IMG/VR virus record: IMGVR_UViG_3300025659_000002
Location: 1 to 64,000 of that record
DNA from: a virus
Taxonomy: Duplodnaviria; Heunggongvirae; Uroviricota; Caudoviricetes
Direction: 5' to 3' (one strand)
Length of the DNA: 64,000 nt
A program made the position numbers and the translations under genes. Below, piece by piece: positions 2,747-24,295 of the stretch (position 1 is its first letter; each line of letters starts with the position of its first letter). A model generated the notes under the pieces. The model worked only from the letters and a program-made list of their open reading frames with translations. It was not told the DNA's origin and did not search any database.

Positions 2747-2819
2747 TAGCACGAGTGGGCGTCGAACCCACCTTCCCAGGTTTCCAAAACCCAAGAGCCT
2801 CGCCCCCGGTCACCGCACT
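2747..2819 (-). tRNA. tRNA-like element with atypical D/anticodon arms (possible pseudo-tRNA)
   Basis: Rev-comp has acceptor AGTGCGG/TCGTGCT (7 bp with G-U pairs) and T-arm GTGGG-TTCGACG-CCCAC. The only hairpin in the middle is GGTTT-TGG-AAACC, a 3-nt loop; no 7-nt anticodon loop could be drawn. Confidence 0.35.
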
Positions 2820-2831
2820 AAACCTATTTAG

Positions 2832-3068
2832 CTACCTAACTTTCCTAGCTACCGCTATTATTTCATGTACAAATACATCTCCCAATTCATAGCTGCCATA
2901 AGTATAGGGAGACTTAACTCCGCAAAACCATCTAGCGCCTTCTTTGTTATCATCTATTTGCCATTTTTTTAAAACTTTCCATTCCCAAGACTGATCTAAA
3001 GTTCTCCATATTTCATATGGGTTGTCAAGAGGTCTGGTCTTTCCACATAAATTCTTCTGTCTTGTCAT
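2832..3068 (-). CDS. hypothetical protein (start trimmed to MTRQKNL)
   Basis: ORF track 2832..3152; the N-terminal 28 codons are the reverse complement of tRNA-Glu, so the internal ATG was used. Confidence 0.4.
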   Translation of the reverse strand: MTRQKNLCGKTRPLDNPYEIWRTLDQSWEWKVLKKWQIDDNKEGARWFCGVKSPYTYGSYELGDVFVHEIIAVARKVR

Positions 3069-3094
3069 TTTATTTTTCTGGTTTGTTACCTTCG

Positions 3095-3166
3095 TAGCGC
3101 ATAGGAGAATCGAACTCCTGTACCCAGACTGAAAACCTGGTGTCCTAGCCATTAGACGAATGCGCC
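3095..3166 (-). tRNA. tRNA-Glu (anticodon TTC) candidate
   Basis: GGCGCAT-TC-GTCTAATGGCTAGGAC-A-CCAGG-TTTTCAG-TCTGG-GTAC-AGGAG-TTCGATT-CTCCT-ATGCGCT-A; cloverleaf closes with G-U pairs. Confidence 0.5.
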
Positions 3167-3178
3167 GTTATTAATGAG

Positions 3179-3252
3179 TGGAGAAGAGGGGATTTGAACC
3201 CCTGACCCTCTGCGTGCAAAGCAGTTGCTCTCCCAGACTGAGCTACAACCCC
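3179..3252 (-). tRNA. tRNA-Ala (anticodon TGC) candidate
   Basis: GGGGTTG-TA-GCTCAGTCTGGGAGAGC-A-ACTGC-TTTGCAC-GCAGA-GGGTC-AGGGG-TTCAAAT-CCCCT-CTTCTCC-A. G3:U70 present; two acceptor-stem mismatches in my hand fold. Confidence 0.5.
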
Positions 3253-3258
3253 ATTAAT

Positions 3259-3495
3259 TTATTCTGTTTGTTCTGTTGCTTGTTTTTCTTCTTCTGCCAT
3301 GACTACTTCTGATTCGGCCCATGAAAGTATTAAAAGATACCACACGATTCCACAAATGGCATAACAAGCTAGTCCATATGTTTTTGCCCATCCGGCTTTC
3401 TTTGTATACTTTGGCATTAGCGACATTACTAGGAACATAGTTCCAAGCCCAAATATAATTCCCACTGGTATGAGAAGTACTATAATTCCCATCAT
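3259..3495 (-). CDS. small membrane protein (78 aa, two TM helices)
   Basis: ORF track; hydrophobic stretches; TAA stop. Confidence 0.45.
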   Translation of the reverse strand: MMGIIVLLIPVGIIFGLGTMFLVMSLMPKYTKKAGWAKTYGLACYAICGIVWYLLILSWAESEVVMAEEEKQATEQTE

Positions 3496-3520
3496 AACGT
3501 TGTCCTTTCTTTTTATTTCG

Positions 3521-3593
3521 CAGAGCGCACGGGGATCGAACCCGCAGTCTCCGGCGTGACAGGCCGGCGTGTTACCATTAACACTTCCACCCT
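3521..3593 (-). tRNA. tRNA-Asp (anticodon GTC)
   Basis: AGGGTGG-AA-GTGTTAATGGTAACAC-G-CCGGC-CTGTCAC-GCCGG-AGACT-GCGGG-TTCGATC-CCCGT-GCGCTCT-G. The CUGUCAC loop is classic tRNA-Asp. Confidence 0.65.
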
Positions 3594-3602
3594 ATAAATT
3601 AG

Positions 3603-3674
3603 AGCCTAGGGAAGGAGTTGAACCTCCATTTCTCTTAGCGGACTAAGAGCGTCTTACCATTAGACGACCACGGC
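3603..3674 (-). tRNA. tRNA-like element with 8-nt (or self-pairing) anticodon loop, anticodon region AGTCCGCT
   Basis: GCCGTGG-TC-GTCTAATGGTAAGAC-G-CTCTT-AGTCCGCT-AAGAG-AAAT-GGAGG-TTCAACT-CCTTC-CCTAGGC-T. The anticodon arm is an 18-nt perfect palindrome (7-bp stem plus 4-nt loop, or 5-bp stem plus 8-nt loop). Two acceptor-stem mismatches. Confidence 0.35.
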
Positions 3675-3676
3675 GT

Positions 3677-3749
3677 TGGTTGGGGGTGTGGGATTTGAAC
3701 CCACATTCGCCTGCCTCTGCAGACGTCCTTTACGTTGGATGAGCCCCCA
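3677..3749 (-). tRNA. tRNA-like element with encoded 3' CCA and shortened anticodon loop
   Basis: TGGGGGC...GTGGG-TTCAAAT-CCCAC-ACCCCCA-A-CCA. The middle hairpin GTCTG-CAGAGG-CAGGC has a 4-6 nt loop, not a 7-nt anticodon loop. Confidence 0.35.
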
Positions 3750-3786
3750 TTAATTTTTTCTCTCTATGTCAAAAAACTAGAATCTT

Positions 3787-4026
3787 CTATAGAAGGTTCT
3801 TTTGTTTTAAAATACGATTTACATGTAGTTTTGTAATTACAGGCTGTTTATTTTGACTAGCCATATGTAACGCAATTTTAACCTCTTTACCTTTGTGCCC
3901 TGGTTTGCTTGTTGCAAATTTTACAATTCGTCTTGCTATGTTCATTTCCCGTGTTTCACGCCCCAGGTATCGTTGGCATTTTATTTTGTCTCTACCCTGT
4001 TTGTTAGAGTTTGATTTTTGTGACAT
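3787..4026 (-). CDS. basic small protein (79 aa)
   Basis: ORF track; K/R-rich; lies between tRNA genes. Confidence 0.4.
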   Translation of the reverse strand: MSQKSNSNKQGRDKIKCQRYLGRETREMNIARRIVKFATSKPGHKGKEVKIALHMASQNKQPVITKLHVNRILKQKNLL

Positions 4027-4035
4027 TAGCTTTCC

Positions 4036-4431
4036 TTATTTTTTAAATCTTTTTTCCAATTGTTTATAAAGCTCAAAATCGTCTTTTTCTTTCTTATTCT
4101 TCCGTCTTGTCGCGTTTCGCTTTCTAGTTATTTCAGATTTTTTTGCTCTATCTTTTAATACATTCGTTCTAATAGTAAATTCCTCATCCGTCTCTTTTCG
4201 ACTCACGCTAACCTCTAATTCGTCGAGCTCTATCCTATCGTCCCACGAGTTGAACTGGCTACAAACTGCGGTAAACCTCACATCTGGGTTGTCTACCCCT
4301 GTCTGTTGTCTAGAAAGAGCTATGATGTGCCTTAGTACCTCTTGTACGTCTTCAAGTTTTCCTTCTAGATCATCATAATCATACGGGTGTGCTATTATTA
4401 TTTTAACTGTTTTCTTTTCATAACTTGCCAT
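4036..4431 (-). CDS. hypothetical protein (131 aa), acidic core with basic C-terminus
   Basis: ORF track; TAA stop. Confidence 0.5.
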   Translation of the reverse strand: MASYEKKTVKIIIAHPYDYDDLEGKLEDVQEVLRHIIALSRQQTGVDNPDVRFTAVCSQFNSWDDRIELDELEVSVSRKETDEEFTIRTNVLKDRAKKSEITRKRNATRRKNKKEKDDFELYKQLEKRFKK

Positions 4432-4453
4432 TGTTTTTTATTGGTTTTATTTG

Positions 4454-4524
4454 AGCAACTAGAGAGAATCGAACTCTCATCGTCTGAGTGGAAGTCAGAA
4501 GTCTTACCGTTGGACCATAGCCGC
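4454..4524 (-). tRNA. tRNA-Gly (anticodon TCC)
   Basis: GCGGCTA-TG-GTCCAACGGTAAGAC-T-TCTGA-CTTCCAC-TCAGA-CGAT-GAGAG-TTCGATT-CTCTC-TAGTTGC-T; all stems pair. Confidence 0.7.
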
Positions 4525-4773
4525 TTTAATTGGTAAAGCTGTGACAATTTCATTAGTTTTCTTATCATATACTACTTTGTATCTAATGCTATTTTGCTCA
4601 ATAATCATAACTAACCTGTGTCCTACTTTTTCTAGAACGCTTACTCCTTGGTCGTTATACTCGTTCCTAATTCTATTCAATAATTCTTTTCTTAGCTTTT
4701 TGGTCAACGTAATATCATAACGCTCTTCAAATCTTTTTACAGCGTGTTGTCGTTGATTGTGTTTATAACTCAT
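4504..4773 (-). CDS. hypothetical protein (start trimmed to MSYKHNQ)
   Basis: ORF track 4504..4851; upstream codons overlap tRNA-Gly(GCC), so the internal ATG was used. The last 6 codons overlap the 5' end of tRNA-Gly(TCC). Confidence 0.4.
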   Translation of the reverse strand: MSYKHNQRQHAVKRFEERYDITLTKKLRKELLNRIRNEYNDQGVSVLEKVGHRLVMIIEQNSIRYKVVYDKKTNEIVTALPIKAAMVQR

Positions 4774-4794
4774 GTTGCCCTTTCTATTTATTTG

Positions 4795-4865
4795 AGCAGC
4801 TAGACGGATTTGAACCGACATTCCAACCATGGCAAGGTTGTGTCCTACCATTAGACGATAGCCGC
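4795..4865 (-). tRNA. tRNA-Gly (anticodon GCC)
   Basis: GCGGCTA-TC-GTCTAATGGTAGGAC-A-CAACC-TTGCCAT-GGTTG-GAAT-GTCGG-TTCAAAT-CCGTC-TAGCTGC-T. Confidence 0.7.
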
Positions 4866-4866
4866 A

Positions 4867-5544
4867 TTACCAAGAAACTTTTCTTATTTTTAATAGAAAA
4901 TCATTTACTAATTTTGAGTTAGCTTCTTTTTTTGTAGACTTATTAAACGCGTCTTCTAGTTTTTCTTCCCAAGAGCTACAAGTTTTTATAACCTCTGGTA
5001 TAGTAGATTCGCCTTCCTTATATTTTCTGCAAAGAATGCCTACTTCTGTATCAGCTATTCTGGCTGTAAAATCGCCAGTTTGTAATAGTTCGTATCCATT
5101 ATATAACATTCTTAACCAGGCCGCTGATGATTTTCTTTTTCTAATGGTATCTAATTCTACATTTCCATTACTAAGGGCTTCATCATTTTCTAAAAGCTTT
5201 TTGCGTTGCGATTGAGCATAACCCCTGTACGAGTGGAAAACTAATTTAGAACTCCAAACGTCTGGAAATAGACTTCTTAACTCTTCACACCAGTTCTCGT
5301 TTTCTGTAGTAAATGTCGCTTTAAAAGTTTCCAGAATTGTAGGATTACTTCTTAATGCGAAATGTAGAAATCTAGCTAATTCCCAGGTATCTGCTGGATC
5401 CTTTGGATCGCTGGGCTGGTGCTCTGGTAAAGCTAAAATATTTGAAGTAGTCTCAATAAATACAGTTTTATAATCGAAATCACTTATAGGAGTATCTAAC
5501 CCATGCAATCTACTTCCTACTAACGCTCTCATTAATAATCTCAT
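4867..5544 (-). CDS. nucleotidyltransferase (Pol-beta superfamily, GS...SD[FI]D motif)
   Basis: N-terminal GSRLHGLDTPISDFDYK matches the minimal nucleotidyltransferase G[SG]x(9-13)Dh[DE] signature. Confidence 0.5.
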   Translation of the reverse strand: MRLLMRALVGSRLHGLDTPISDFDYKTVFIETTSNILALPEHQPSDPKDPADTWELARFLHFALRSNPTILETFKATFTTENENWCEELRSLFPDVWSSKLVFHSYRGYAQSQRKKLLENDEALSNGNVELDTIRKRKSSAAWLRMLYNGYELLQTGDFTARIADTEVGILCRKYKEGESTIPEVIKTCSSWEEKLEDAFNKSTKKEANSKLVNDFLLKIRKVSW

Positions 5545-5578
5545 TTATAATTCCCTATTGTTAATAATTGTTAAAAAA

Positions 5579-5612
5579 AAGACCCAGCGAGTGATCGCCG
5601 GGCCTAATTTCA
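5579..5612 (-). terminator. rho-independent terminator candidate
   Basis: On minus strand: GGCCCGGCGATCACTCGCTGGGTC hairpin followed by TTTTTTTT, immediately downstream of the Hsp20 gene. Confidence 0.45.
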
Positions 5613-5669
5613 AAGATATAAAGCGGTTAAGCTTTATAATGTCTTTTATTGACGATCTACATAGAAGCG

Positions 5670-6056
5670 CTAGCCTTCGCTAACTGTGAACTCCTGTGGA
5701 GTGAATTTCCCTTTTACAGGTATGGCGATGGTTAAAACACCACGAACTAGCGAACTAGTTAATTTTCCATAATTAAAATGTTCACCGTTCTGTAATGGAA
5801 ATTCGTTATAGAAACCTTTACAGAAAGTTCCTTTACCAATCTCTTTATCCGGTCCAGCTGTCACTAACAGGCGGTCATGAGTTGAAGGCGAATTGCCGAA
5901 CGCAGTTCCAGCCTTAGCTATTCTAATTTTAATGTTAGAAGCCTGATAACCTGGTACTAATAGCTCAACCATTACGTTTGGCTCGTTCCAGTACAGTACG
6001 AAGTCTACTGCATCATATTTTTTATCGTCACTTAATTTTGAGTATAAATTGCTCAT
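5670..6056 (-). CDS. small heat-shock protein (Hsp20 / alpha-crystallin family)
   Basis: 128 aa; C-terminal GVLTIAIPVKG is the sHSP I-x-I box; alpha-crystallin-like beta-strand region. Confidence 0.6.
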   Translation of the reverse strand: MSNLYSKLSDDKKYDAVDFVLYWNEPNVMVELLVPGYQASNIKIRIAKAGTAFGNSPSTHDRLLVTAGPDKEIGKGTFCKGFYNEFPLQNGEHFNYGKLTSSLVRGVLTIAIPVKGKFTPQEFTVSEG

Positions 6057-6068
6057 TTGTTGTCTTGA

Positions 6069-7760
6069 TTATTTCATTTTTAGTTGATACATCCGATTCA
6101 TTTCATAGAACCGAACAATATTGCCCTCGTGGGCCAGTGTCATCGACGACTTGATGGCAGAGTCTTTGTAGACCTGCACATCACTTGAAGCCTTAGCGCG
6201 AAACATTTCTAAAGCGCCATCTTCATGTATACTTATAGTTAATCCGTTAGGTAGGCAGATAAAATTCAACATATTATCTGCGTCCTTCAAGATTCTTATA
6301 TCATATTTTTTGAAATTTTCATCGAATACGATAATAAATTTATCATACTTGCTGCCTGATTGTCCTATTATCATACAAACCCTGTCTCGGCATTTTGCAT
6401 CAATTATCTTGTACTTATCTAGTTCAGGAATTGCTACAATTGCACATTTGTTGGGTGCGTATGGTAAATATAAATGAGTTTTACCTAAAATACTAGAACA
6501 TAATACTCCATCTAACATTTCTGTAGAATTATTGAATATTTCCCAAGTATTTAAAATATAAAACGTAGGCTTTGAGCCGGTATCTAATACATCTATTTCA
6601 AAAAATCTATCCTTGTTTACGCCATATAGCCTATTTTCGTATATCATAGTTTTTTCAACCTTAATATTTGTACTATGATAAGGAGATTGGCTATCTTCCA
6701 ATGATCTGTATACTAAAGATTCATCCTTAGTTTTCACAAGAAACGTCTTTTGAGACATACTGTGTGAAAAAACCTTGGAGGTGGTATCTTTAATATAACT
6801 ATTATTGTTATATATGACAACATCTTTTTTGGTATATATTATATACTGTCTACCAAAATAAGTGCAGTCAATTATGTCGCCAGGATAATCGTTTAATTGT
6901 TGTATTGTAAAATATTTGCTTCCGGTGTGTGTTGTTATTATAGGAGTTATTGGAAGTATAATGTACTGCCCTTTCATGTCTGGAGGAGTACTTCTATAAC
7001 CATTTTCAAATACTTCTTTAAACCAATCATAATAACTCTTAGGTATATTTGTAAAGTCCCTTACTGCGCCCGGAACACGCGTTTCAGGGTTAAAGATTGA
7101 TACGTTTGCTCTCATACGTTCTTCTAATGTAGCTCGTTTAAAGTGAGAATTCTTTCCCTTATATGGGTGAATTCCTATAAACAGTTGACAAGCTATTACA
7201 GCGAAGGAAAACCAATCTGAAATTTCTGTGAATTCTGTAGCATGCCAATCTCTAATAGAGGGCATAATTACTGTAGCTGGATAATTAGGAGTTTGCCATG
7301 AGTTTACATCTATACAATAAGCAGTAGTATGCTTTCTAGTTTCTATTAAATAATTTAATTCGTTACCATCGACCATTATTATGTCATGATCGTGCACATG
7401 ACTAATTGTATCCTTAATATTTGTAACTAATTTAGTAACGGTATCGTTATTTAAATTGTTTCTATTAAGATACGCAGATGTAAACATTCTTGGTAATGGA
7501 ATAGACTGAGGTACAGTCTGCATCATAAATCCTATTAACGTGTTTTTTGTAGTGTAAATTAAATTCTCAGGTTTTATAATGGTATTCTTAGTAAGAACTG
7601 ACAGTTCCCTAATTTTTTCTTCAGGTATCATAGTTTTTGGGTCATGAAATATTTTATAAGCTCTTCCACCTTTTACATATACTTTACCCTCTCCACCTTG
7701 AGCTACAAAATTAGAGTCTAATAATGATACTTGCCCCTTTCCTTGTACTAAAACCTTCAT
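6069..7760 (-). CDS. protein kinase-like protein (TerY-P triad kinase candidate)
   Basis: 563 aa. N-terminal AQGGEGKVYVKGGRAYK resembles a glycine-rich ATP loop with following Lys; HDHDIIMVDGNELN is catalytic-loop-like. ATGA overlap with the upstream PP2C gene. Confidence 0.45.
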   Translation of the reverse strand: MKVLVQGKGQVSLLDSNFVAQGGEGKVYVKGGRAYKIFHDPKTMIPEEKIRELSVLTKNTIIKPENLIYTTKNTLIGFMMQTVPQSIPLPRMFTSAYLNRNNLNNDTVTKLVTNIKDTISHVHDHDIIMVDGNELNYLIETRKHTTAYCIDVNSWQTPNYPATVIMPSIRDWHATEFTEISDWFSFAVIACQLFIGIHPYKGKNSHFKRATLEERMRANVSIFNPETRVPGAVRDFTNIPKSYYDWFKEVFENGYRSTPPDMKGQYIILPITPIITTHTGSKYFTIQQLNDYPGDIIDCTYFGRQYIIYTKKDVVIYNNNSYIKDTTSKVFSHSMSQKTFLVKTKDESLVYRSLEDSQSPYHSTNIKVEKTMIYENRLYGVNKDRFFEIDVLDTGSKPTFYILNTWEIFNNSTEMLDGVLCSSILGKTHLYLPYAPNKCAIVAIPELDKYKIIDAKCRDRVCMIIGQSGSKYDKFIIVFDENFKKYDIRILKDADNMLNFICLPNGLTISIHEDGALEMFRAKASSDVQVYKDSAIKSSMTLAHEGNIVRFYEMNRMYQLKMK

Positions 7761-8536
7761 AATATTATTCCAGCAATTCCAATATCGTCTGCGTTAGTAA
7801 TATAATTTCTATTCCAGGTTTTCTTAAGAAACCTTAGTTTTCTTACAGCGAATGCTCCTGCGGCACTTGGGAAATGAGTGATGATATCATCAATCACTAC
7901 TCTCTCTCCAGTATCCCTATCTATTACTTGGTCTATACCATCAGTAGTTAAAATTACCGAAGCTATCGGGTAATCAGGCTGAAATATAAAGGGCATTCCA
8001 GTTTCTAATGCTACATTGGTAGGATCCTCGTCACCATCATTCATGTGAACAACTGTTTGTCCTTTGTCCTTTAAACACTCTTTGTATTCTTCCTGATCTT
8101 TTCGAGTAATGTTATACGCAGGATAGTATGGAGTATTATGAGGTGATTGAATATCTATATGAAGCGGTCCTTCTTTTGAATCTAAGAAACAATGTCCATC
8201 TCCGGCCATAAGAATATAAAAGCTTTGTTTTTCTTTATTATAGATAGCTACCAACACAGTTGACAGCAGCATACGGCGGTCCAGGCCTTGGACATCAGTA
8301 TAACCTTTACATAATTGAAGTTGCCACTCTAATTTTTGACGAGTCAGCTCTCCAAATTCTCTAATGGCTTGTTCTACACTATGGGCTATTAATCTAGCTC
8401 CAAAATCTGTGTGAGGAGCGCTTGAACACCCATCACATACAATAATATAAGCTATCTCATCTGTTTCCCCATGAAGTGTATAATCTTCACAAACCCGATG
8501 AGTGGCCCCTTGAATAAAATGTGAATCTATGTTCAT
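7757..8536 (-). CDS. PP2C-family Ser/Thr phosphatase
   Basis: IVCDGCSS, LMAGDGH, LTTDGI metal-binding Asp/Gly motifs; 259 aa. TGA stop overlaps the kinase ATG. Confidence 0.6.
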   Translation of the reverse strand: MNIDSHFIQGATHRVCEDYTLHGETDEIAYIIVCDGCSSAPHTDFGARLIAHSVEQAIREFGELTRQKLEWQLQLCKGYTDVQGLDRRMLLSTVLVAIYNKEKQSFYILMAGDGHCFLDSKEGPLHIDIQSPHNTPYYPAYNITRKDQEEYKECLKDKGQTVVHMNDGDEDPTNVALETGMPFIFQPDYPIASVILTTDGIDQVIDRDTGERVVIDDIITHFPSAAGAFAVRKLRFLKKTWNRNYITNADDIGIAGIIL

Positions 8537-8565
8537 AGTTTTCCTTTTAATAAGAACGAACGTAA

Positions 8566-8633
8566 CAGCGCGGATTGGATTCGAACCAATGTCTAGGGTA
8601 TCCCCTAACTCTACCCTGCTGAGATACCGCCCC
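8566..8633 (-). tRNA. tRNA-like element (68 nt) with truncated anticodon arm
   Basis: GGGGCGG-TA-TCTCAGCAGGGTAGAG...ATTGG-TTCGAAT-CCAAT-CCGCGCT-G. The anticodon position holds TAGGG-GATA-CCCTA (4-nt loop). Lies between the vWA and PP2C genes. Confidence 0.35.
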
Positions 8634-8664: not shown

Positions 8665-9429
8665 TTAGAATTTCATACTAGCTTGAGCAGAAGGTCCGCC
8701 AGTGCCAAGTGAATGGCTCTGTGAACTAATGCTTTGGCTAATGAAATTCCCTAATTTTGCAAGAGTTTTAGCATTTGCATTGCCCGCATCAATATATTGC
8801 GTGAGGTCTGCATCATCTTTAAACTCTTTTAATAGTTGTGAAACCCTAGAGCCCCAACCATGGTTGCCGTCTGTGCCTATCCCGATTAATACGGAAATTA
8901 AAGATTCAATTGATTCTTCGGCACGTTTAATGGAGTGTATTCTGTCCTTTACATTAGTGGCTGTCATAGTCGAAGAATTATCATCTCCGTCTGTAATAAC
9001 ATACACGGCAGCATTTACACTGTATTCCTGGTCCGCTAGGGATTTACCATACTGTTCAATTGATCCGATCATATCATAAGTGGCATCAAACAGGTTAGTA
9101 GCTGCGTCAGGTACTAATTTCCCTGAATACTCACTTAAATCTATATCGTTTACAGGCTTAAATCCATGGATTTCCAAAATATCAGTCTGACTATTAAACA
9201 GTGTTACCCTAACAAGTAGATTTTCAGAACGTGCAGACATTTTACATGCCCCCACTATTTCTTCAATCATCTTTTGTAACATAGTTTCATAACCGCCCAC
9301 TGATCCGGTAATGTCAACGACTATACCTACTAAGGTATATTCGGAGGCTTCTAGTTCATCTAAGCCTATTGCTGAAAACTTAAAATTTCCAGCTCCTAAT
9401 AAGTCCACACTTTGCATGGTATCTACCAT
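8665..9429 (-). CDS. von Willebrand factor A domain protein (TerY-like)
   Basis: VVDITGSVGG MIDAS-like DxTGS motif; 254 aa; first gene of the vWA-PP2C-kinase triad. Confidence 0.6.
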   Translation of the reverse strand: MVDTMQSVDLLGAGNFKFSAIGLDELEASEYTLVGIVVDITGSVGGYETMLQKMIEEIVGACKMSARSENLLVRVTLFNSQTDILEIHGFKPVNDIDLSEYSGKLVPDAATNLFDATYDMIGSIEQYGKSLADQEYSVNAAVYVITDGDDNSSTMTATNVKDRIHSIKRAEESIESLISVLIGIGTDGNHGWGSRVSQLLKEFKDDADLTQYIDAGNANAKTLAKLGNFISQSISSQSHSLGTGGPSAQASMKF

Positions 9430-9459: not shown

Positions 9460-10323
9460 TTATTTCAAAAAGTCTTCAGCTTTACAGATCTGCATACCGC
9501 GTGAAACCATTTCCGTTACAAAGTCGGTACCCAATTTCTCAAACCCAGTAACATTTGAAGAAGTGTCTTCAAGCAGTACTAGTTTTTTGATATTCTCTTC
9601 TCCGAAGTTGTCTGCAATATCTTTAACTGTATTAGCTACACAGTGTGATAGAGCCTGACCTGAAAGGGCAATTATGTCTGCGTCTTTTAAAAGTTTTAAA
9701 AGAGTGACGTTTAACTGCGTAGTAGGATCTTCATCGTCAGGTACATCAGCAATAACGCCAGAGTAATGTTCTGTCCAAGGGTTGTGTCCTTTTGTAACAT
9801 AGTTTATTCTGCGTTTTCTGCTTTCTTCCCAGGCTTCAAGTTCTGCGTTTACAACATCTACTACATTGTGGCCCCATGTGCCCACTTTACAATGTGGTGG
9901 CCATATACACAGAAGGTATCTGTCGTTGTCTTGGAGAGCTTGCAGGTAAGCTCTGGCTCTTGGAATTCGATCTGGGCTAGTCGGTGTCCAAACTGATCCG
10001 TTTAAGTCGTCTAGACTTATAAGTGTAAACGGGCCCGGATGTTCTCCAGCACTATTCATCCAAAATAATGGATGCGAAATATCCAACAATTGGTGGGTAT
10101 CTAGCGTCACGTGGATCCCAGTAATTTTACCTCTTAAGCGGTTAAGCACCATAGCTAACCTCTCAGAGTCCTCATAAGCCCCCGGTACCGGTAATTCTGG
10201 TTCTGGAAGTCGTAATCCTATATCCGCCAAATTTATGCCGGCTTTTTGAAGTAAGACTAAATCATTGTTTCGATCCATAAAAGAGTTTTGTGGATCAATT
10301 ATTAAGAAGTGCAATTTTTGCAT
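9460..10323 (-). CDS. isochorismatase-family amidohydrolase, nicotinamidase (PncA)-like
   Basis: LIIDPQNSF (catalytic Asp region), WPPHCKVGTWGH, and SGQALSHCV (nucleophile Cys) are typical of PncA/Pnc1-type nicotinamidases. Confidence 0.6.
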   Translation of the reverse strand: MQKLHFLIIDPQNSFMDRNNDLVLLQKAGINLADIGLRLPEPELPVPGAYEDSERLAMVLNRLRGKITGIHVTLDTHQLLDISHPLFWMNSAGEHPGPFTLISLDDLNGSVWTPTSPDRIPRARAYLQALQDNDRYLLCIWPPHCKVGTWGHNVVDVVNAELEAWEESRKRRINYVTKGHNPWTEHYSGVIADVPDDEDPTTQLNVTLLKLLKDADIIALSGQALSHCVANTVKDIADNFGEENIKKLVLLEDTSSNVTGFEKLGTDFVTEMVSRGMQICKAEDFLK

Positions 10324-10377
10324 TTTGTTTTTTTTCCTTTTCTAACTTGTATGTTATTATTTCGTCAGTTTATTAAT

Positions 10378-11292
10378 TTAGAAGTTTCCGTAGTTTACTT
10401 GGAAACATTGTAGACCTAAGTCTTTACGCCATAGACCAACTACTTGGTCTCTATCATCAAACACGCAAAATACGTTGTATTTATCTTTAACGTGTTCATC
10501 ATAAAGTTTGCGTTTAAGAATTGAATCTCTTATATTATGCTCAAACAATGGTCTCATGAACATCTTCCAATGAGGAAACGGAAGGTTTGCTTTCAAAAAC
10601 TGTCTAGTTTCTGAAAGGTATTTTTCCGATCTTCCAGATAAAAAGATTATTTGGTATCCCTGTTTGTCCATAACGTGAAGAATTTCCCCCAAAATCGCAT
10701 TGTAAGTATCGTTCTCACAAGTAGAGGCGTCATAAGGGTTACGGCCTTTAAGGAATGCCATCGTGCCGTCTAAGTCACAAATGATTGCCTTAGGTAAGCC
10801 GTCTACCAACTCAACCGTGCCTGGAGGCTCAGGATAGTCGTGAGGCTCATCTTTCTTTAGAAACCTACTGTACATATCATAAATAACTTTAGAGCCTACA
10901 TGGGCCGATCCTGTACGTAATGCGTCTCGATCAATGGCATCAAATACATCTGTAGGGAATTCTCTAACCACAACTAATACGTCGTGCTTAACTTCCCGTA
11001 AAATGTTATAGTCCGCCACTATTTTTCTAATATGCTCCTCATTTGAGCTGTGTAAGTTTGTATCATCTACGAATACTGATCTTCCGGCATCTAAGTATCT
11101 AAAGATTAAAGAGTCTCTAATTGCTTTAATTATTTTCTCATTTCCTTTAGAGTATACTCCACCATCAACCATGCTTCGTAGACTATCCCTATTTACACGT
11201 TTGTATGTATCTGGCATTTTATCCATCATATCTACGGCATACGAAGTCTTACCGCTTGCGGGTAACCCCCGTAGTATTATTACTTGTCTCAT
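10378..11292 (-). CDS. pnk: polynucleotide 5'-kinase / 3'-phosphatase (T4 Pnk-like)
   Basis: N-terminal P-loop GLPASGKTS plus C-terminal HAD motif I CDLDGTM; same two-domain architecture as T4 Pnk. Confidence 0.7.
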   Translation of the reverse strand: MRQVIILRGLPASGKTSYAVDMMDKMPDTYKRVNRDSLRSMVDGGVYSKGNEKIIKAIRDSLIFRYLDAGRSVFVDDTNLHSSNEEHIRKIVADYNILREVKHDVLVVVREFPTDVFDAIDRDALRTGSAHVGSKVIYDMYSRFLKKDEPHDYPEPPGTVELVDGLPKAIICDLDGTMAFLKGRNPYDASTCENDTYNAILGEILHVMDKQGYQIIFLSGRSEKYLSETRQFLKANLPFPHWKMFMRPLFEHNIRDSILKRKLYDEHVKDKYNVFCVFDDRDQVVGLWRKDLGLQCFQVNYGNF

Positions 11293-11316
11293 TTTGTATT
11301 TCCTTTTATTTATGGC

Positions 11317-11700
11317 TTAGTCTCTATCCCATAACTTTATAGAACTCTCCGCCGTACTCTGGGCGTGTTTGTACTCAACGTCAGAGTATTGGTATAAAGA
11401 TGCTTTCCACATATCTTTATTTCGTGCAAATTGTTCAAGATGCTCGGGAGCTATCACTTCTGTTATTGACAAACAGTTTCCAGCTGATTCACCTAACTGT
11501 GAACTATGTACGCGAGTATTTACATACAAAGTGTCAGAGTCAAAGTCTAACCAGTCGAAAGAGCGCCCCTCACCCTTTGGAATGAATTTAGTATTTTTGA
11601 GTTGGCATATCTCTAACACTGAAGGCTCATATAACCCAGGAAGCACCATTAATACTATATCGCCATCTTTCAGTGTTTTTAAAAGCTGGTTACTTTTCAT
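11317..11700 (-). CDS. hypothetical protein (127 aa)
   Basis: ORF track. Confidence 0.45.
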   Translation of the reverse strand: MKSNQLLKTLKDGDIVLMVLPGLYEPSVLEICQLKNTKFIPKGEGRSFDWLDFDSDTLYVNTRVHSSQLGESAGNCLSITEVIAPEHLEQFARNKDMWKASLYQYSDVEYKHAQSTAESSIKLWDRD

Positions 11701-12765
11701 TTATTCTCCAAACTTAATTAAGAAGTCAGGGTTAATTACTTTAAAACTAAAGCTACCATCTCTCGCTCTAATCACAATTCCCTCTCTTGGGATATCAGGA
11801 TTTAGAAGGCTTGGGCCTTTAGAAAGCTCTACTAATTCGTCTACTGTATGGTTTAACACCATCTTTGGATTAAGGACAGGTACAGTATTAAATATTCTAT
11901 CTAACCCTCGTACGCGAACTTCCCCCTCAGTTGTGTAGTCCCCAAATATAAGATTTAGAAAGCTCTCAATACTTCCAAAGCCACCATCTTGTATAGTAAA
12001 AGCGTTAAACATTTTTACTTCTGTAGCAGACAATTTGTATTTATTTTTCTGAATCCCTGGCCCCAGTAATTCTCCTTGGAAAATTACATTTATACCAAGT
12101 TTAGACATTTTCTCTTCTGCGTCAATATCTCTAGCGACTTTCCAGAAAGAATTTTTGTCATTCTCTATTAGGTCAAGCTTCCGACTGCATACTCCGAAAG
12201 GTGTTGCTTTTCGGTAGTTAGGTGCATAATAAAAGGTAGATGACGATCCATCTAATTTCTCTGTTATGTAGCACTCTGTTCCTGCCCATTCTTTTATTTC
12301 ATCTACAAGATTCTGTACACGTTCTTCATCCGTCTTAGGAATCCAGGAAGGTCTGTGGCCTTTAATCTGGCCACTTAAGCATGCTGGAATGGGTGCTTCA
12401 TATTTTACTACTTTCAAAAGTTCACTTACGTCTGTTCCCACTTCGGGGCCATCGGCGAGCTCTTCGAAAGTATCTAATGGCATGGCTAGCCCTTGACTAA
12501 TTTGCTTACGCAATTTTATAGTTCGTAAGCGATAACCTCTTGTGCCGTCATCTATTGTTTTGACACCGTTTTTCTTTAAGAATTCAAACGGCTCTATTTC
12601 TGGCAACAAAGAGTCCACTTCAAAGTAGACGCATTTATCACCTATTTGAAATTCCCCCTTCTTAACTACTAGATGCCAGCCTTTTACAGTTGCTTTTTCA
12701 ATTACATCTGCTCCAGAGATAGGCTCTAAATTAGCTATGAGTTGGATTGTTGCTAAATGTCTCAT
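11701..12765 (-). CDS. ATP-dependent RNA ligase (KxDG nucleotidyltransferase family)
   Basis: ITEKLDGSSSTFYY contains the ligase motif I K-x-D-G; 354 aa; adjacent to Pnk. Confidence 0.55.
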   Translation of the reverse strand: MRHLATIQLIANLEPISGADVIEKATVKGWHLVVKKGEFQIGDKCVYFEVDSLLPEIEPFEFLKKNGVKTIDDGTRGYRLRTIKLRKQISQGLAMPLDTFEELADGPEVGTDVSELLKVVKYEAPIPACLSGQIKGHRPSWIPKTDEERVQNLVDEIKEWAGTECYITEKLDGSSSTFYYAPNYRKATPFGVCSRKLDLIENDKNSFWKVARDIDAEEKMSKLGINVIFQGELLGPGIQKNKYKLSATEVKMFNAFTIQDGGFGSIESFLNLIFGDYTTEGEVRVRGLDRIFNTVPVLNPKMVLNHTVDELVELSKGPSLLNPDIPREGIVIRARDGSFSFKVINPDFLIKFGE

Positions 12766-12766
12766 T

Positions 12767-13288
12767 TTATAATTTCCATTCTTGTTTTAAAAAGTTTATT
12801 CTGGCTGTTATACTTTTATAATATTGCCAACCTGCTGGAGACTCCCAGCGATTGCCCGCCCTGTAGGATCTTACAGTTTTGGACCAGCTACCATTATGTC
12901 TCTCATTCTTCCAATAGGTTAGTTCAGTTATTGCTTCTCTACAACTAAGTATGTGACTATCTATGAGCCATTGGGCCACTACATTCCTATTAAAGGGTGT
13001 GTCCTCTATCTCATCTCTATGTCTACTCATATATGTGTTGATATTGATATGGTGAGCTCCTGCGGAAGGGTCTTGCAAATTTACAAGGTATTTACCTCCT
13101 GCAGATTCTTGCCACTCAATAGCAGCTAATGTCCACCCTAAATCAAAGGGCACCCCATATTCATAGGATGCCCGTATTGATTCTTGTTGATGGCTTGTTA
13201 AAGCTTTCCATTCCTCAGGTAAGGCTCCAACGCATAAACATATATTTGTGAGTAGTATTAGTAAATATCTAATCGAGCCAACTTGCAA
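12767..13288 (-). CDS. secreted protein, weak lytic-transglycosylase-like motif
   Basis: N-terminal hydrophobic signal-like segment; AAIEWQESAGG resembles an Slt catalytic ES motif (weak). Confidence 0.3.
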   Translation of the reverse strand: MQVGSIRYLLILLTNICLCVGALPEEWKALTSHQQESIRASYEYGVPFDLGWTLAAIEWQESAGGKYLVNLQDPSAGAHHININTYMSRHRDEIEDTPFNRNVVAQWLIDSHILSCREAITELTYWKNERHNGSWSKTVRSYRAGNRWESPAGWQYYKSITARINFLKQEWKL

Positions 13289-13469
13289 TTGCAGCTATAC
13301 CGCCTACAGCTAAAAATAATAAGACGAAGCCAAGCCACAGCGGGGCAGTTATCCACCACCAACTCCATGTAATGACTCCAACTAACTTTAGGACAAGTAA
13401 TACTATAAATAGTATGAATCCGGGATTTTTCATTTTTTCTCCGTTTGTTTTGGTTTTAAATATTTCCAA
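13269..13469 (-). CDS. small membrane protein (66 aa)
   Basis: ORF track; two hydrophobic helices. Confidence 0.4.
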   Translation of the reverse strand: MEIFKTKTNGEKMKNPGFILFIVLLVLKLVGVITWSWWWITAPLWLGFVLLFLAVGGIAAIASWLD

Positions 13470-14503
13470 ATTAAGGGCTTTATGTTTTTCCCTTGTAACA
13501 TTGTAAATACTAAAGAAATTATTTGTTTATTTCCAATATTTATGACTTTTTCTGCTACTGCTTTGGAAGTTCGTTTTTTCATATCAATTGATTCTGGGAA
13601 ACTAGTTATAAGGTGCATGTATTGTTTACAAGCAGTGTTTGCTAATATCACATAATTCTCTCTAAAGTTATCTATAGAGGTATGAAGCCATTTATAGTAT
13701 TCATCTGGTACAATATCAATTAACTCTTGTATATCTAATTCTGGATCTGATAAGTATTTCCATACCGTTTTATCATTGCAAAGCTGCAATATACGGTGAT
13801 GTCTTACATACCAGTCAAATTTTACTTTAACTCTGAACCCGTTATCATATGCTAACACAAATCCTTCTTTGTTTTCTTGATTTGGTACATTATATAACTC
13901 ACTTACATCGCAATCATGTTCATATAGCTCTGTTCTTGGTATACAAGTAGTAACAGCGTGCAACCCTATCTCTCTGCCAGTAAACGTATCGCGTACTGCC
14001 AATAGCCTTAGGTCGCTCTCTGGGTAGGTGATACAGGTCATCCCCCCTTTCTTAAGAGTAGGTGTTAAGAACTCATAGCAGTATGTGAAGTCCTCCCTTA
14101 TAGTAAGGTCAGGGTATTTTTCTTCTAAGACTACATTGGCCTCTGTAATATATTCATTATCAAAAGAGCCTCTTGTAGATTTAATTAAATGCCCCCTCCA
14201 CATAACCATTATAAATAGACATCCGTCTAGTTTATTAAAAATGCTGTAGTGGTCATCTGGGAGCTCGATACCTAGTCCTTCTAATTCTGTATAGTTGAAA
14301 AATTTTCTAAAAGGGTTGGCTACTACAGTTCCATATTCATCTAGTATAAGACCCCTACATCTAGTAGTGGTATCGTTCCAATTTCGAGCATACTGTGTGG
14401 CATGGGTATAATTATATATCCAAAGTGGAAACTCTGGATGTTTTCTTCGCTTTACCCACCCTTCCTTTATTTGGGTTTCTAAAACTGTTAGGACTGTATT
14501 CAT
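13430..14503 (-). CDS. second KxDG nucleotidyltransferase (RNA ligase 2-like)
   Basis: FNKLDGCLFIM motif I; 357 aa; a second ligase paralog as in the T4 rnlA/rnlB arrangement. Confidence 0.5.
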   Translation of the reverse strand: MNTVLTVLETQIKEGWVKRRKHPEFPLWIYNYTHATQYARNWNDTTTRCRGLILDEYGTVVANPFRKFFNYTELEGLGIELPDDHYSIFNKLDGCLFIMVMWRGHLIKSTRGSFDNEYITEANVVLEEKYPDLTIREDFTYCYEFLTPTLKKGGMTCITYPESDLRLLAVRDTFTGREIGLHAVTTCIPRTELYEHDCDVSELYNVPNQENKEGFVLAYDNGFRVKVKFDWYVRHHRILQLCNDKTVWKYLSDPELDIQELIDIVPDEYYKWLHTSIDNFRENYVILANTACKQYMHLITSFPESIDMKKRTSKAVAEKVINIGNKQIISLVFTMLQGKNIKPLIWKYLKPKQTEKK

Positions 14504-14506
14504 TAT

Positions 14507-15523
14507 TTACCTTTTTGTTTTAAAGCCTATATTATGAGAAGAAATTGCTACTTCAGACGTAGCTACCTCTTGCCTTAGTTTATTAATTCTGTCTATTGAT
14601 ACTTTATAATCTGTATCTAACATTATGACGCTTACTATGAGTTCTTTAATATGTGCGAAAGACCAGTTATTAGTATCTTTTACCCAAGTATTTAATTCTT
14701 TACCCTTTAAACTACTCTTTAATTGTAAATATTTTTTACGAGTAATTTCATCTGGGTAATCCTGGTGCATAACCCTGTCAAACCTCGAAGGTCTATTTTT
14801 TAAAGATGTAGGAAGCCGTTCTGGATAAGCAGTTGTAGCTAAAAATACAACATTATTTATTACTCCTATTCCATCTAGTAAATCCAGAATCTTTGCTTCA
14901 GCTACTGGATCCATTATAATTCTGTCAATGTCTTCAATTATAACAAGTATGGGCCTATTCCCCTCAATATCTCTTATTCTAGTAATACCTTCTGATACTA
15001 CAAAAGAGCTATCAAATACTAAATATCCTTTTTGAATACAATTTGACATTACTATTTTCATTGTACTATTTTTTCCTGAGCCGTCTCCACCATAAATTAG
15101 AATTCCTCTTTTATGGCTTTCTCCCCAAGCTTTATAAGCTGATCCAAGTTTCCAAAATTTTCCTAATTCTAATAATATTTCTTCAGCTATTGAATTACTA
15201 AATAAAATTAGGTCCGAGGCTTCTAGCTCAATATTTAAGAACTCTACGGCGGCTCCTCTAGATTCTAATACTTCATAATACCCTGCTGGTAAAATTTTTA
15301 CAAAAGCTGAAGCTGGTAAAAAAGTTCCTTGTTCATTGGTTAAATATCCAGAGGTTACGTTTTCAAGATTTAGGTTTTTATCTTCGGGGAGTAGGGCGCT
15401 ATTCTGGCTATCTTCGGATAAAAAAGTTTCAGGTTCACTATTATTATATAATTCTGAACTTGTAATCTCTTTTTTCCTAAATTTATCAATTTGTTTTTTA
15501 TCTACTTCTATTTTGCTAGTCAT
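14507..15523 (-). CDS. AAA-type ATPase
   Basis: Walker A ILIYGGDGSGKNST, Walker B PILVIIEDIDR. Confidence 0.55.
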   Translation of the reverse strand: MTSKIEVDKKQIDKFRKKEITSSELYNNSEPETFLSEDSQNSALLPEDKNLNLENVTSGYLTNEQGTFLPASAFVKILPAGYYEVLESRGAAVEFLNIELEASDLILFSNSIAEEILLELGKFWKLGSAYKAWGESHKRGILIYGGDGSGKNSTMKIVMSNCIQKGYLVFDSSFVVSEGITRIRDIEGNRPILVIIEDIDRIIMDPVAEAKILDLLDGIGVINNVVFLATTAYPERLPTSLKNRPSRFDRVMHQDYPDEITRKKYLQLKSSLKGKELNTWVKDTNNWSFAHIKELIVSVIMLDTDYKVSIDRINKLRQEVATSEVAISSHNIGFKTKR

Positions 15524-15537
15524 AAATCTCCATAAAG

Positions 15538-15566
15538 AAAAACGGGGCCGAAACCCCGTTTATATA
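15538..15566 (-). terminator. rho-independent terminator candidate
   Basis: AAACGGGGTTTCGGCCCCGTTT hairpin followed by TTCTTT on the minus strand, between the 15567..16418 stop and the 14507..15523 start. Confidence 0.5.
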
Positions 15567-16418
15567 TTAATATCTAGTTGTACACGCTGGACAACATATC
15601 CAGGTAGACTTTTTTCGTCTAAGTCCACATTTTTGGCAATAACGTTTCTCTAAATCATTTACCGTAATAGGTTTTAATGACATAGGTAATAATTTATAGG
15701 TTACTACATGAGAGGGAGTATGCTCAAATTTTTGATAGCTTCTTCCGAACTTTTGTTCTGAATGACTACCTTGTTTAATTCTACCCGTCTCTTTCATAGG
15801 CGCGCTTGCAAAGCATGCGGTTGTAAGTACTTCGCCACTATCTTCTATCATACCCATAGCCATTTGAGGCTCTGCTGGATTTGAGCATCTTGTGCCCCTA
15901 GCGCTATACATACTTGGCGCTGACATGCCGCTAATTCCCGTGAATTCGCCAGCAAGGTCGGTCCACCAAGTATTATCGTTGGTTAGTATATCACCTTCCC
16001 ATGTAAACGGTCTTGGGTAGACATTAGGATTAGTGTATGGGCTACAGTATTTATGCTCGATAGGAAATGACTCTCGATAAAACTCTATCTCTAGTAATCC
16101 GTTCTCGGCTATAGCTTTGTCTATTTCCTCAGTATCTTCTACGTTATATGTTGAAAATTCAAACTTTCGATCTACTTCGATATGTCGTTCCAGAAAATAA
16201 TGCTGTCCAGGGTCAAGCACAAGCCCGCCATTGGAAATATATTTTCCATTAAGTTTTATCCTCAATTTACAGGAAGAAGTTTCTAAGTTAGTAAGTTCGA
16301 TTTCAAATTCGTCTTTATCATTTAAGTAATAAGTTGCTTCTATGCCATTCCAGACATCTAATTGGCTATATACTTTTAAACGATTCTTTTGAATTGTAAG
16401 GTTGGTTTTTATATTCAT
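15567..16418 (-). CDS. hypothetical protein with C-terminal zinc ribbon
   Basis: 283 aa; C-terminal CQKCG...CCPAC. Confidence 0.45.
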   Translation of the reverse strand: MNIKTNLTIQKNRLKVYSQLDVWNGIEATYYLNDKDEFEIELTNLETSSCKLRIKLNGKYISNGGLVLDPGQHYFLERHIEVDRKFEFSTYNVEDTEEIDKAIAENGLLEIEFYRESFPIEHKYCSPYTNPNVYPRPFTWEGDILTNDNTWWTDLAGEFTGISGMSAPSMYSARGTRCSNPAEPQMAMGMIEDSGEVLTTACFASAPMKETGRIKQGSHSEQKFGRSYQKFEHTPSHVVTYKLLPMSLKPITVNDLEKRYCQKCGLRRKKSTWICCPACTTRY

Positions 16419-20238: not shown

Positions 20239-20240
20239 AA

Positions 20241-23296: not shown

Positions 23297-23541
23297 TCGG
23301 AACGGATCCCTCCCATTTTGAAAAAGTCTACATTACTTAACCCGGTAAATTTGAAAGAATCTCTGTCTTTTTTCGAGTATTTATCGCAGACATAATGTTC
23401 CATTTCATCAACAAACTGGTTAAAATCCATTTTGTTGAAATAGTTTATAGTATCAATAGCTTCTTTTAATTCGTGAAAGTTATGTTTTATTTTTCTTATT
23501 GCACACCCGCCTTTAGTTGTGCGAACTATTTCAGTATTCAT
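23293..23541 (-). CDS. hypothetical protein (82 aa)
   Basis: ORF track. Confidence 0.4.
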   Translation of the reverse strand: MNTEIVRTTKGGCAIRKIKHNFHELKEAIDTINYFNKMDFNQFVDEMEHYVCDKYSKKDRDSFKFTGLSNVDFFKMGGIRSE

Positions 23542-24096: not shown

Positions 24097-24109
24097 TATT
24101 TCTCCTTAT

Positions 24110-24295
24110 TTAGGGTTTAATAGCAACATACAAATCTAAGGCTTTATATATTATTTCGCCTTCTTGTAAATTCGCCCTCACCTTTTCTTCAATATTGCCC
24201 CACTCCATAAGATTTTTATAATTGTATCTTTTGTCATGAAAGAAATTAATACTTTTTAGCAAATCTTTTTCAATCTGTGTTAAATCATTTTTCAT
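24110..24295 (-). CDS. hypothetical protein (61 aa)
   Basis: ORF track. Confidence 0.35.
   Translation of the reverse strand: MKNDLTQIEKDLLKSINFFHDKRYNYKNLMEWGNIEEKVRANLQEGEIIYKALDLYVAIKP

Follow-up and report, generated by a model that had tools for sequence, protein, structure and literature searches.

Phage genes with a tRNA body in which a closed mini-hairpin replaces the anticodon loop

What use could a phage have for a transfer RNA (tRNA) gene that keeps its body and has no loop with which to read a codon? The question is raised by the tRNA region of a virus of the Caudoviricetes, IMG/VR record IMGVR_UViG_3300025659_000002, of which positions 1 to 64,000 were analysed (this whole stretch of 64,000 nucleotides (nt) is called the window). 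The window is part of a huge phage found in many metagenomes. Four tRNA-like elements are present at the positions given in a preliminary description of this DNA, 2747-2819, 3603-3674, 3677-3749 and 8566-8633; all are on the minus strand, and they are referred to here as elements 1 to 4. Each had been described as having a short hairpin where the 7-nt anticodon loop should be. This holds for elements 2, 3 and 4 and fails for element 1, which is a normal tRNA-Pro; ARAGORN, applied to the region, draws a standard 7-nt loop for element 1 and for none of the other three. Elements 2, 3 and 4 derive from tRNA genes, with the body intact and a closed mini-hairpin occupying the place of the anticodon loop. 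Their anatomy is clear, a class of short-arm tRNA-like genes looks real and overlooked by analogy with other viral contigs, and the function suggested below is a proposal.

Three tRNA bodies that lack the anticodon loop

Element 2 (3603-3674, minus strand) is a tRNA-like gene of 72 nt, seen by ARAGORN, by the Rfam tRNA model and as an RNAfold cloverleaf. ARAGORN places it at 3602-3674 and reports 'tRNA-?(Gly|Arg)(cc)', that is 'tRNA-???', with a 6-nt loop and the two-base anticodon 'cc'. The Rfam tRNA score is 38.3 bits with default filters, the gathering score being 29. Its acceptor stem has seven positions with two central mismatches (G4.A69 and U5.U68) and the discriminator is U. The D arm is perfect (GUCU/AGAC, loop AAUGGUA) and the T arm reads GGAGG-UUCAACU-CCUUC. 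In place of the anticodon arm there is an 18-nt hairpin (3632-3649, minus strand), in which a 7-bp stem, CUCUUAG/CUAAGAG, is closed by a UNCG-type tetraloop, UCCG, at 3639-3642. This tetraloop fold is both the minimum-energy and the centroid structure, makes up 58% of the ensemble and has a z score of -3.05 (RNAfold). The arm can also be drawn in other registers, as 5 bp with the 8-nt loop AGUCCGCU or as 6 bp with a 6-nt loop.

Element 3 (3677-3749, minus strand) consists of 70 nt and an encoded CCA, and is identified by its RNAfold cloverleaf and by the repair test described below. The acceptor stem starts with U1-A72 and has six of its seven pairs (C7.A66 is a mismatch), followed by a discriminator A and the CCA at 3679-3677; one element had been said to encode its own CCA, and the ACCA at 3680-3677 confirms it. 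The D stem has 3 bp with an 8-nt loop that lacks GG, and the T arm is GUGGG-UUCAAAU-CCCAC. The substitute for the anticodon arm (3708-3725, minus strand) has a 7-bp stem, CGUCUGC/GCAGGCG, with one G.U pair, and the loop AGAG. The canonical 5-bp part of this stem and its loop come to 14 nt against the usual 17, exactly 3 nt being missing. The cloverleaf has a z score of -4.31, with none of 200 shuffled sequences equally stable (RNAfold). In its unmodified form the element is reported neither by ARAGORN nor by the Rfam tRNA model, with default or relaxed filters.

Element 4 (8566-8633, minus strand) is a solitary tRNA-like gene of 68 nt, identified by the repair test and by Rfam, where it scores 37.6 bits against the gathering score of 29 and is detected with relaxed filters only. 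The acceptor stem, GGGGCGG/CCGCGCU, includes a G1.U72 pair and a G3.G70 mismatch. A 3-bp D stem carries a loop with GGG, the variable region is 3 nt long and the T arm is AUUGG-UUCGAAU-CCAAU. The anticodon-arm substitute (8594-8607, minus strand) is a 5-bp stem, UAGGG/CCCUA, with the loop GAUA, and a sixth pair, U.G, is possible.

All three elements therefore possess the cloverleaf body of a tRNA, with an acceptor stem (five, six and six of seven pairs in elements 2, 3 and 4, respectively), a D arm (stems of 4, 3 and 3 bp) and a perfect T arm with a 5-bp stem and a 7-nt loop of the form GTTCRANNC. The residues that shape the L, namely U8, A14, A21, G53, T54-Psi55-C56, A58 and C61, are retained throughout; the 15:48 pair is A-U, A-U and G-C, and G18G19 is kept in elements 2 and 4 and absent from element 3. 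None of the three has a 7-nt loop with U33 and a purine at position 37. The loops UCCG, AGAG and GAUA have no motif in common. Among the tRNA-like sequences tested, the most stable folds are those of elements 2 and 3, the phage's own canonical tRNAs having z scores of -0.3 to -0.4 (RNAfold).

In the repair test, the loop alone was changed to 7 nt, the rest was left untouched and the ARAGORN call was scored. Elements 3 and 4 are called as tRNAs when the 4-nt loop is swapped for any of several 7-nt loops, and a 7-nt loop in element 2 gives a Gly(UCC) or an Arg(CCG) call. As judged by this test, the loop is the only defect in the three elements. The test was combined with a scanner based on the T-arm motif and on acceptor, D and anticodon-stem pairing. 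Applied to the 64-kb window, in which both ARAGORN and Rfam with default filters find 12 tRNA genes, this combination returns exactly elements 2, 3 and 4 and nothing else. Four loci from other huge phages, 92 kb of DNA without tRNAs, give no match, and neither do 20 dinucleotide-preserving shuffles of the window; the three elements are therefore far above chance. Independent ENA, JGI and Logan assemblies contain the same element sequences, every available assembly being 99.9-100% identical to the window across the elements, which excludes an assembly error.

Element 1 (2747-2819, minus strand) is no member of this group. ARAGORN calls it as tRNA-Pro(UGG), drawn at 2746-2819, with the 7-nt anticodon loop UUUGGAA on a stem of 5-6 bp, and it alone among the four has a normal loop with U33 and a purine at 37. 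The hairpin GGTTT-TGG-AAACC with a 3-nt loop attributed to it comes from over-pairing of U32 with A38 and of U33 with A37. Such pairing is not meaningful, because U33 and A37 are near-universal residues and this complementarity is present in very many real tRNAs. The gene has oddities of its own. Its D arm has two pairs only, there are three G.U pairs in the acceptor stem, A37 is found where G37 is usual, and the fold has a z score of -0.76 (RNAfold). There is no match to the Rfam tRNA model even at E<=10, probably because of the two-pair D arm and the G.U pairs of the acceptor.

The elements are not recent copies of neighbouring genes. Their best matches among the other tRNAs of the phage are 65-72% identical, which is the range seen between unrelated isoacceptors, and recent duplication is therefore rejected as an origin. 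The nearest paralogue of element 2 is tRNA-Gly(UCC) at 72% identity, and its D arm and U73 are common to both Gly tRNAs. The U1-A72 start of element 3 presumably reflects a resemblance to tRNA-Gln. Comparison of the region and of each element with 50,697 phage records by megablast and blastn gave either no matches or T-arm and D-arm fragments of ordinary tRNAs. Exact-pattern and protein-guided scans of IMG/VR and the JGI metagenomes found just RlaP homologues of 29-34% identity, at tRNA-free loci, and in a collection of 5.8 billion proteins the best matches were 27% identical for the PP2C phosphatase and 47% for Pnkp. No diverged relative of the phage was found in any of these sources.

Short-arm tRNA-like genes in other viral contigs

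Analogues were looked for in IMG/VR with the pattern GGTAGAG-N{14,23}-GGTTCGAATCC, which joins common D-arm and T-arm motifs at a spacing at least 3 nt too close for a normal anticodon arm and leaves the acceptor stems outside the pattern. At least 117 loci were found. After the repair test there are at least 26 distinct tRNA-like sequences with anticodon arms of 13-16 nt and loops of 3-6 nt, such as GAAA, C-GAAA-G, AGAA, GGCA, UAAC, UUU and UAU. At least four families occur on several contigs, and in these the element is more conserved than its 200-nt flanks (0.936 against 0.871, 1.000 against 0.993, 0.990 against 0.972 and 0.986 against 0.758). It is clear that analogous short-arm tRNA-like genes, conserved and structurally intact, are widespread in viral contigs.

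Among the matches listed, the acceptor stem is fully paired in 21 of the 26 short-arm elements, compared with 185 of 218 canonical tRNAs at the same loci. The elements are recognized by Rfam as tRNA only, at 39-53 bits, in many cases no other tRNA-like gene shares the locus, and 29 of 37 cases lie in the same orientation as the flanking open reading frames (ORFs). The ends are unusual, with A1-U72 in 11 of 26 and a discriminator C in 10 of 26. Most of these examples are in small phages, on contigs from about 10 kb, and of about 25-60 kb for the recurrent families. None of the protein families encoded nearby is repeated from one of these loci to another, and no RNA-repair domain is among the Pfam families listed for the genes around them. 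A Tad2-like anti-defence gene is near one of the IMG/VR loci.

Long inserts are also found in place of the anticodon arm. In the phage itself, a 123-nt tRNA-like sequence lies about 2.3 kb beyond the window start (contig L007, 12863-12985; also on contigs L008 to L010). It scores 29.9 bits with the Rfam tRNA model and has good acceptor, D and T arms, with 64 nt replacing the 17-nt anticodon arm; with its long insert it forms the counterpart to the short-arm elements and recalls mimics of the YrlA type. Two IMG/VR contigs have clusters of four or five non-canonical tRNA-like sequences without a canonical tRNA (L077, 847-3465; L047, 1806-3014). Two members of these clusters are short-arm elements of 68-69 nt and three have insertions (98-133 nt), one of which holds a second T-arm-like hairpin. 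The phage studied here likewise combines short arms with long inserts. Erf/RecE-type recombination genes adjoin the cluster in L021, a near-identical sister contig, and presumably in L077 as well.

Unassigned tRNA genes are also seen in other phages. In a 50-kb stretch of the huge phage LR745206.1, 2 of 13 ARAGORN genes are 'tRNA-???' and both lie inside tRNA clusters (10865-10938 and 23337-23424). An 8-nt loop, CAGUAGGG, is found in one of them; the other resembles class II and has a 6-nt loop in the ARAGORN drawing (anticodon 'gt'), which can also be drawn as the palindrome GUUAC-GUU-GUAAC. In Caulobacter phage phiCbK (JX100813.1), a tRNA-like body whose loop has 8 nt, UUCGUCCG, lies unannotated at 24098-24180, between the two annotated tRNA-Met genes.

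A proposed role for the tRNA body and the alternatives

The elements sit in neighbourhoods of two kinds, and all tRNA genes of the window are, like them, on the minus strand. Around elements 2 and 3, co-directional tRNAs alternate with small ORFs, the order being ORF79, element 3, a gap of 2 nt, element 2, a gap of 9 nt and tRNA-Asp, with element 3 upstream of element 2. Between element 4 and the stop codon of the preceding ORF (8665-9429) there are 31 nt, and 29 nt separate it from the start of the PP2C ORF (7757-8536). It is on the same strand as both and is thus a tRNA-shaped fold between cistrons on the sense strand, as expected of a processing module. The genes around it run in the order AAA ATPase, Rnl1-type ligase, Rnl2-type ligase, Pnkp, element 4, PP2C phosphatase, kinase and ORF128. 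They are followed by a strong hairpin resembling an intrinsic terminator (5580-5605, minus strand; 11 pairs and then a T run), downstream of the ORF at 5670-6056, which places element 4 inside a co-directional transcription unit. By domain annotation, the window encodes a dense toolkit for tRNA and RNA repair, made up of Pnkp, RlaP, a Thg1-like enzyme, an AAA ATPase and two ligases, one Rnl1-type and one Rnl2-type. RlaP is at 4867-5544, the Thg1-like 3'-5' polymerase at 24818-25537 and the others at about 9460-16400, all on the minus strand.

The anatomy and context of elements 2, 3 and 4, together with the IMG/VR analogues, suggest that they are not dead genes but encode RNAs of tRNA shape that do not decode and are retained for some function of the body, a reading to which a probability of roughly 0.5-0.6 is given. 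The transcripts would fold as the L-shaped body of a tRNA, with acceptor stem, D arm, T arm and elbow contacts, while the closed mini-hairpin would prevent codon reading. Recognition would not be expected from enzymes that depend on the anticodon loop, among them most synthetases and the anticodon nucleases. Co-transcribed with the adjoining tRNAs and ORFs, the elements would be cleaved at +1 by RNase P and trimmed at the 3' end by RNase Z or exonucleases, with the CCA added or, in element 3, already encoded. The predicted outcome is the release of a stable RNA of 68-73 nt and, simultaneously, the cutting of the polycistronic transcript. A module for processing or stability, a 'punctuation' for RNase P and RNase Z, is the slightly favoured role and is put forward tentatively, because the parts that these enzymes require are conserved and the arm that they ignore is minimal and variable, and because genes of the same direction flank element 4 and most of the IMG/VR analogues. 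The next candidate, a sponge or decoy that would engage proteins binding the tRNA body, is rather doubtful.

Several observations count against a retained role, and many of them would suit young pseudogenes, in which former decoding tRNAs (roughly Gly/Arg-, Gln- and Ile/Ala-like) have suffered small indels in the anticodon loop, with the rest uneroded and no function left. This alternative has a lesser but appreciable chance of being correct. There are two, one and one acceptor mismatches in elements 2, 3 and 4, respectively, element 3 has no G18G19, element 4 has a variable region of 3 nt, and the loops are without a common motif. Other aberrant tRNAs of the phage would fit a decaying cluster, namely one with the anticodon AUU and a bulged acceptor (33590-33661), the tRNA-Pro with its weak D arm and an uncalled tRNA-Met-like gene (contig L010, 9251-9324), and a natural single-nucleotide variant already abolishes the ARAGORN call of tRNA-Glu. 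No relatives that could show conservation were found in the searches described above; the elements have no orthologues at useful divergence, and the population of the phage, with identities of 99.9-100%, is clonal. Only analogy, not homology, ties the window elements to the conserved IMG/VR families, and the pattern used for the scan favours D and T arms in good condition. Family A of IMG/VR has four stem changes that preserve pairing and two that break it, all of them one-sided, and no double compensatory change. Elements 2 and 3 also adjoin canonical tRNAs that could supply RNase P sites, and punctuation is not obviously needed there. On the other side, decay would have to account for three independent lesions that all fall in the 7-nt loop and leave about 55 nt of body unharmed. 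To turn the Gly(UCC) loop, CUUCCAC, into AGUCCGCU of element 2, about three substitutions and one insertion are needed, each creating complementarity, to arrive at 7 bp and UCCG. Elements 2 and 3 have the most stable folds tested, and the elements have intact bodies although they are not recent copies. Acceptor mismatches are not diagnostic of decay, because the canonical tRNA-Ala of the phage also has two, and the IMG/VR analogues have intact acceptor stems and are conserved above their flanks. The suggestion that these are tRNA mimics rather than decayed pseudo-tRNAs thus receives indirect support, from the retained L-shape residues and from the conserved analogues.

If the tRNA body is what has been kept, it might instead serve to draw off proteins. 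Abundant tRNA-shaped RNAs without a cleavable loop could titrate host nucleases that target tRNAs, or tRNA-binding factors, alongside the repair kit, and such decoy or sponge RNAs are considered unlikely here. The unusually rich toolkit for tRNA damage implies strong pressure from tRNA-targeting defences, element 4 lies in an operon with repair genes, and the Tad2-like gene is close to one IMG/VR locus. Some defence nucleases, namely P2-OLD, bacterial Schlafen and Cas12a3, are reported to act on the anticodon stem or the tRNA tail and not on the loop (PMC12445682, PMC13056530, PMC12851939). In contrast, the classical anticodon nucleases PrrC, RloC, AriB and PtuAB read, according to the literature, the very loop that is absent here, the elements have neither a loop nor a stem motif in common, the Pfam families listed for the genes around the IMG/VR elements include no RNA-repair domain and no recurrent neighbour, and the literature found describes phage tRNAs as nuclease-resistant replacements and not as decoys. 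A decoy for anticodon nucleases in particular, as had been suggested for this locus, gained no support from anything tested, with no common loop motif, the target loop of these nucleases missing and no repair domain among the Pfam families listed for the IMG/VR loci. Decoding with an unusual loop is very improbable. Element 2 would be an 8-nt-loop tRNA (+1 frameshift, quadruplet) or a 6-nt-loop tRNA in which the extra pairs open on the ribosome; ARAGORN does report it as tRNA-?(Gly|Arg), the geometry allows a 5-bp stem with the loop AGUCCGCU, and a 7-nt loop gives the Gly(UCC) or Arg(CCG) calls. However, the 8-nt register A-G-UCCG-C-U has G33 and C37 rather than U33 and a purine, G32-C37 and A31-U38 are Watson-Crick pairs, and the closed tetraloop, at 58% of the ensemble, dominates, so the frameshift tRNA proposed at 3603 is not a likely identity for it. 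The 4-nt loops of elements 3 and 4 cannot present a triplet.

The genes of phage tRNAs are currently explained by codon supply or by the replacement of host tRNAs cut by defence nucleases. A non-decoding tRNA body would, if the preferred reading is true, add a third use of the tRNA fold in phages, in transcript processing or in tRNA mimicry towards host or defence proteins. Standard annotation misses such genes or assigns them no amino acid, ARAGORN giving nothing or 'tRNA-???' and the default filters of Rfam having skipped one, and the short-arm class could therefore be large and uncounted. A bolder version of the idea, which is improbable as a whole, is that of a widespread, unnamed phage class of tRNA mimics without an anticodon loop, each with a mini-hairpin arm of 13-16 nt, made as RNAs that act in trans, for example as uncleavable sponges for body-binding defence nucleases or for host enzymes that handle tRNAs, here alongside the kit of Pnkp, RNA ligases, RlaP and Thg1. 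No account of phage tRNA-like sequences with a shortened or absent anticodon loop was found in the literature; 'tRNA-like structures' are mentioned in general terms for viral metagenomes (PMC10690425).

The elements resemble known tRNA mimics, among them the species 1 and 2 RNAs of phage T4, YrlA, processing modules of the mascRNA type and viral tRNA-like RNAs. They fail the defining features of a decoding tRNA, a frameshift suppressor, YrlA, transfer-messenger RNA (tmRNA) and SpF41. They share with the canonical tRNA (RF00005) an acceptor of seven positions, the D arm, a T arm of the form GGUUCRANUCC, the core tertiary residues and a place in a phage tRNA cluster, and elements 2 and 4 exceed the Rfam gathering score, element 3 being unreported. 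They differ from it in lacking the 7-nt loop, U33 and the purine at 37, the arm being 14 nt long in elements 3 and 4 and a closed 18-nt hairpin in element 2. Species 1 and 2 of phage T4 (rnaC and rnaD) are stable non-decoding RNAs from the T4 tRNA cluster with tRNA-like ends, processed by the tRNA machinery. These are of about 120-140 nt and are not full cloverleaves, whereas the phage elements are complete cloverleaves of tRNA size, short of the anticodon loop only. Mitochondrial tRNA punctuation and the MALAT1 mascRNA, both eukaryotic, involve tRNA-shaped RNAs with a reduced anticodon arm that recruit RNase P and RNase Z and define transcript ends; the shape is similar, and cleavage of the phage elements by these enzymes is a prediction.

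In YrlA, the acceptor, D and T arms mimic a tRNA and a long helix that binds Ro60 (Rsr) replaces the anticodon arm, in RNA repair loci (PMC4201824; bioRxiv 10.1101/312249). The replacement of the arm on a tRNA-mimicking body and the link with RNA repair are shared; unlike YrlA, the elements have a mini-hairpin, and TROVE/Ro60 is not among 25 of the 27 Pfam families from the 122 ORFs of the window. The YrlA design is nearer to the 123-nt sequence with the 64-nt insert than to elements 2, 3 and 4. Nuclease-resistant phage tRNAs have altered anticodon arms under tRNA-targeting defence, including an OLD-resistant tRNA-Thr with a shorter anticodon stem (eLife 2023 e85183; PMC12445682), but unlike the elements they keep the 7-nt loop, still decode and serve as replacements. 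SpF41_sRNA (RF02435, Streptococcus) has a tRNA-like consensus with a 5-bp stem and a 4-nt loop before the T arm GGUUCGAAUCC, and element 4 aligns along its length. It has a terminator hairpin of its own and element 4 is below its gathering score (22.0 bits against 52); since the canonical tRNA-Cys region itself scores 24.7 bits, the match is generic tRNA likeness and SpF41 is rejected.

Other identities were considered and rejected. A phage attachment site (attP) made of a host tRNA fragment does not agree with the complete 5' half and its matching acceptor strand. ARAGORN finds no tmRNA, and the sole Rfam tmRNA match is a 17-nt T arm at 11.2 bits. There is no Rfam match to Y-RNA or YrlA, the arms being 14-18 nt, and the score for a tymovirus-type tRNA-like structure is far below the Rfam threshold. 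The alanine identity pair G3:U70, which offers a route to charging that is independent of the anticodon, is absent from elements 2, 3 and 4, where positions 3:70 are C-G, G-C and G.G; it is found in 2 of the 26 short-arm elements of IMG/VR, among the matches listed.

The phage and its other tRNA genes

Proteins identical to those of the phage are found on contigs of up to 211 kb, and contigs with identical proteins represent the same clonal phage. The Pnkp (10378-11292, minus strand) has an identical protein in NCBI labelled 'MAG: Candidatus Scalindua sp.', where a phage contig was probably binned into a bacterial metagenome-assembled genome (MAG). Its next-best homologues are 43-47% identical, and those that are named are mostly from Flavobacterium and other Bacteroidota. 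The Rnl2-type ligase carries an OB domain. The PP2C phosphatase and the protein kinase form a pair at 6069-8536. Two genomes, of 595 and 485 kb, each recorded as 'uncultured phage', have ORFs with 34% identity to the kinase ORF (6069-7760); no tRNAs lie near the kinase homologues in the huge phages LR756511 and LR745208. The 122 ORFs of the window include a Pfam Mito_carr (mitochondrial carrier) match at E = 1.7e-14, which is unexpected for a phage, and two adjoining Band_7/SPFH proteins at 19279-21164. At window position 5, one extra T is present in all five other assemblies of the phage.

Further tRNA genes of the phage are unusual in other ways. The tRNA at 33590-33661 (minus strand) scores 58.7 bits in Rfam and is missed by ARAGORN; its loop is AUAUUAA (anticodon AUU, with A34), the acceptor stem needs a one-base bulge and the nearest paralogue is tRNA-Asn(GUU) at 73% identity. 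This gene may have arisen as a variant of tRNA-Asn, or it may be a pseudogene. No canonical Gln, Ile, Arg, Leu or Val tRNAs were seen in the roughly 70 kb of the phage examined, which is a minor part of the genome. In one assembly (ENA ERZ4200977), a substitution at window position 3113, in tRNA-Glu (3095-3166), removes the ARAGORN call of that gene; this assembly and the window differ by just four substitutions, this one included, over 5.9 kb. Three further genes lie outside the window on contig L010. The tRNA-Met-like sequence at 9251-9324, which has the loop CUCAUAA and an A.C mismatch in the anticodon stem, receives no ARAGORN call and is about 70 nt upstream of a tRNA-Met that is called. 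The tRNA-Thr(UGU) at 4612-4696 and the tRNA-His(GUG) at 4698-4785 are 85 and 88 nt long, with long variable arms of 14 and 17 nt that are unusual for these isotypes.

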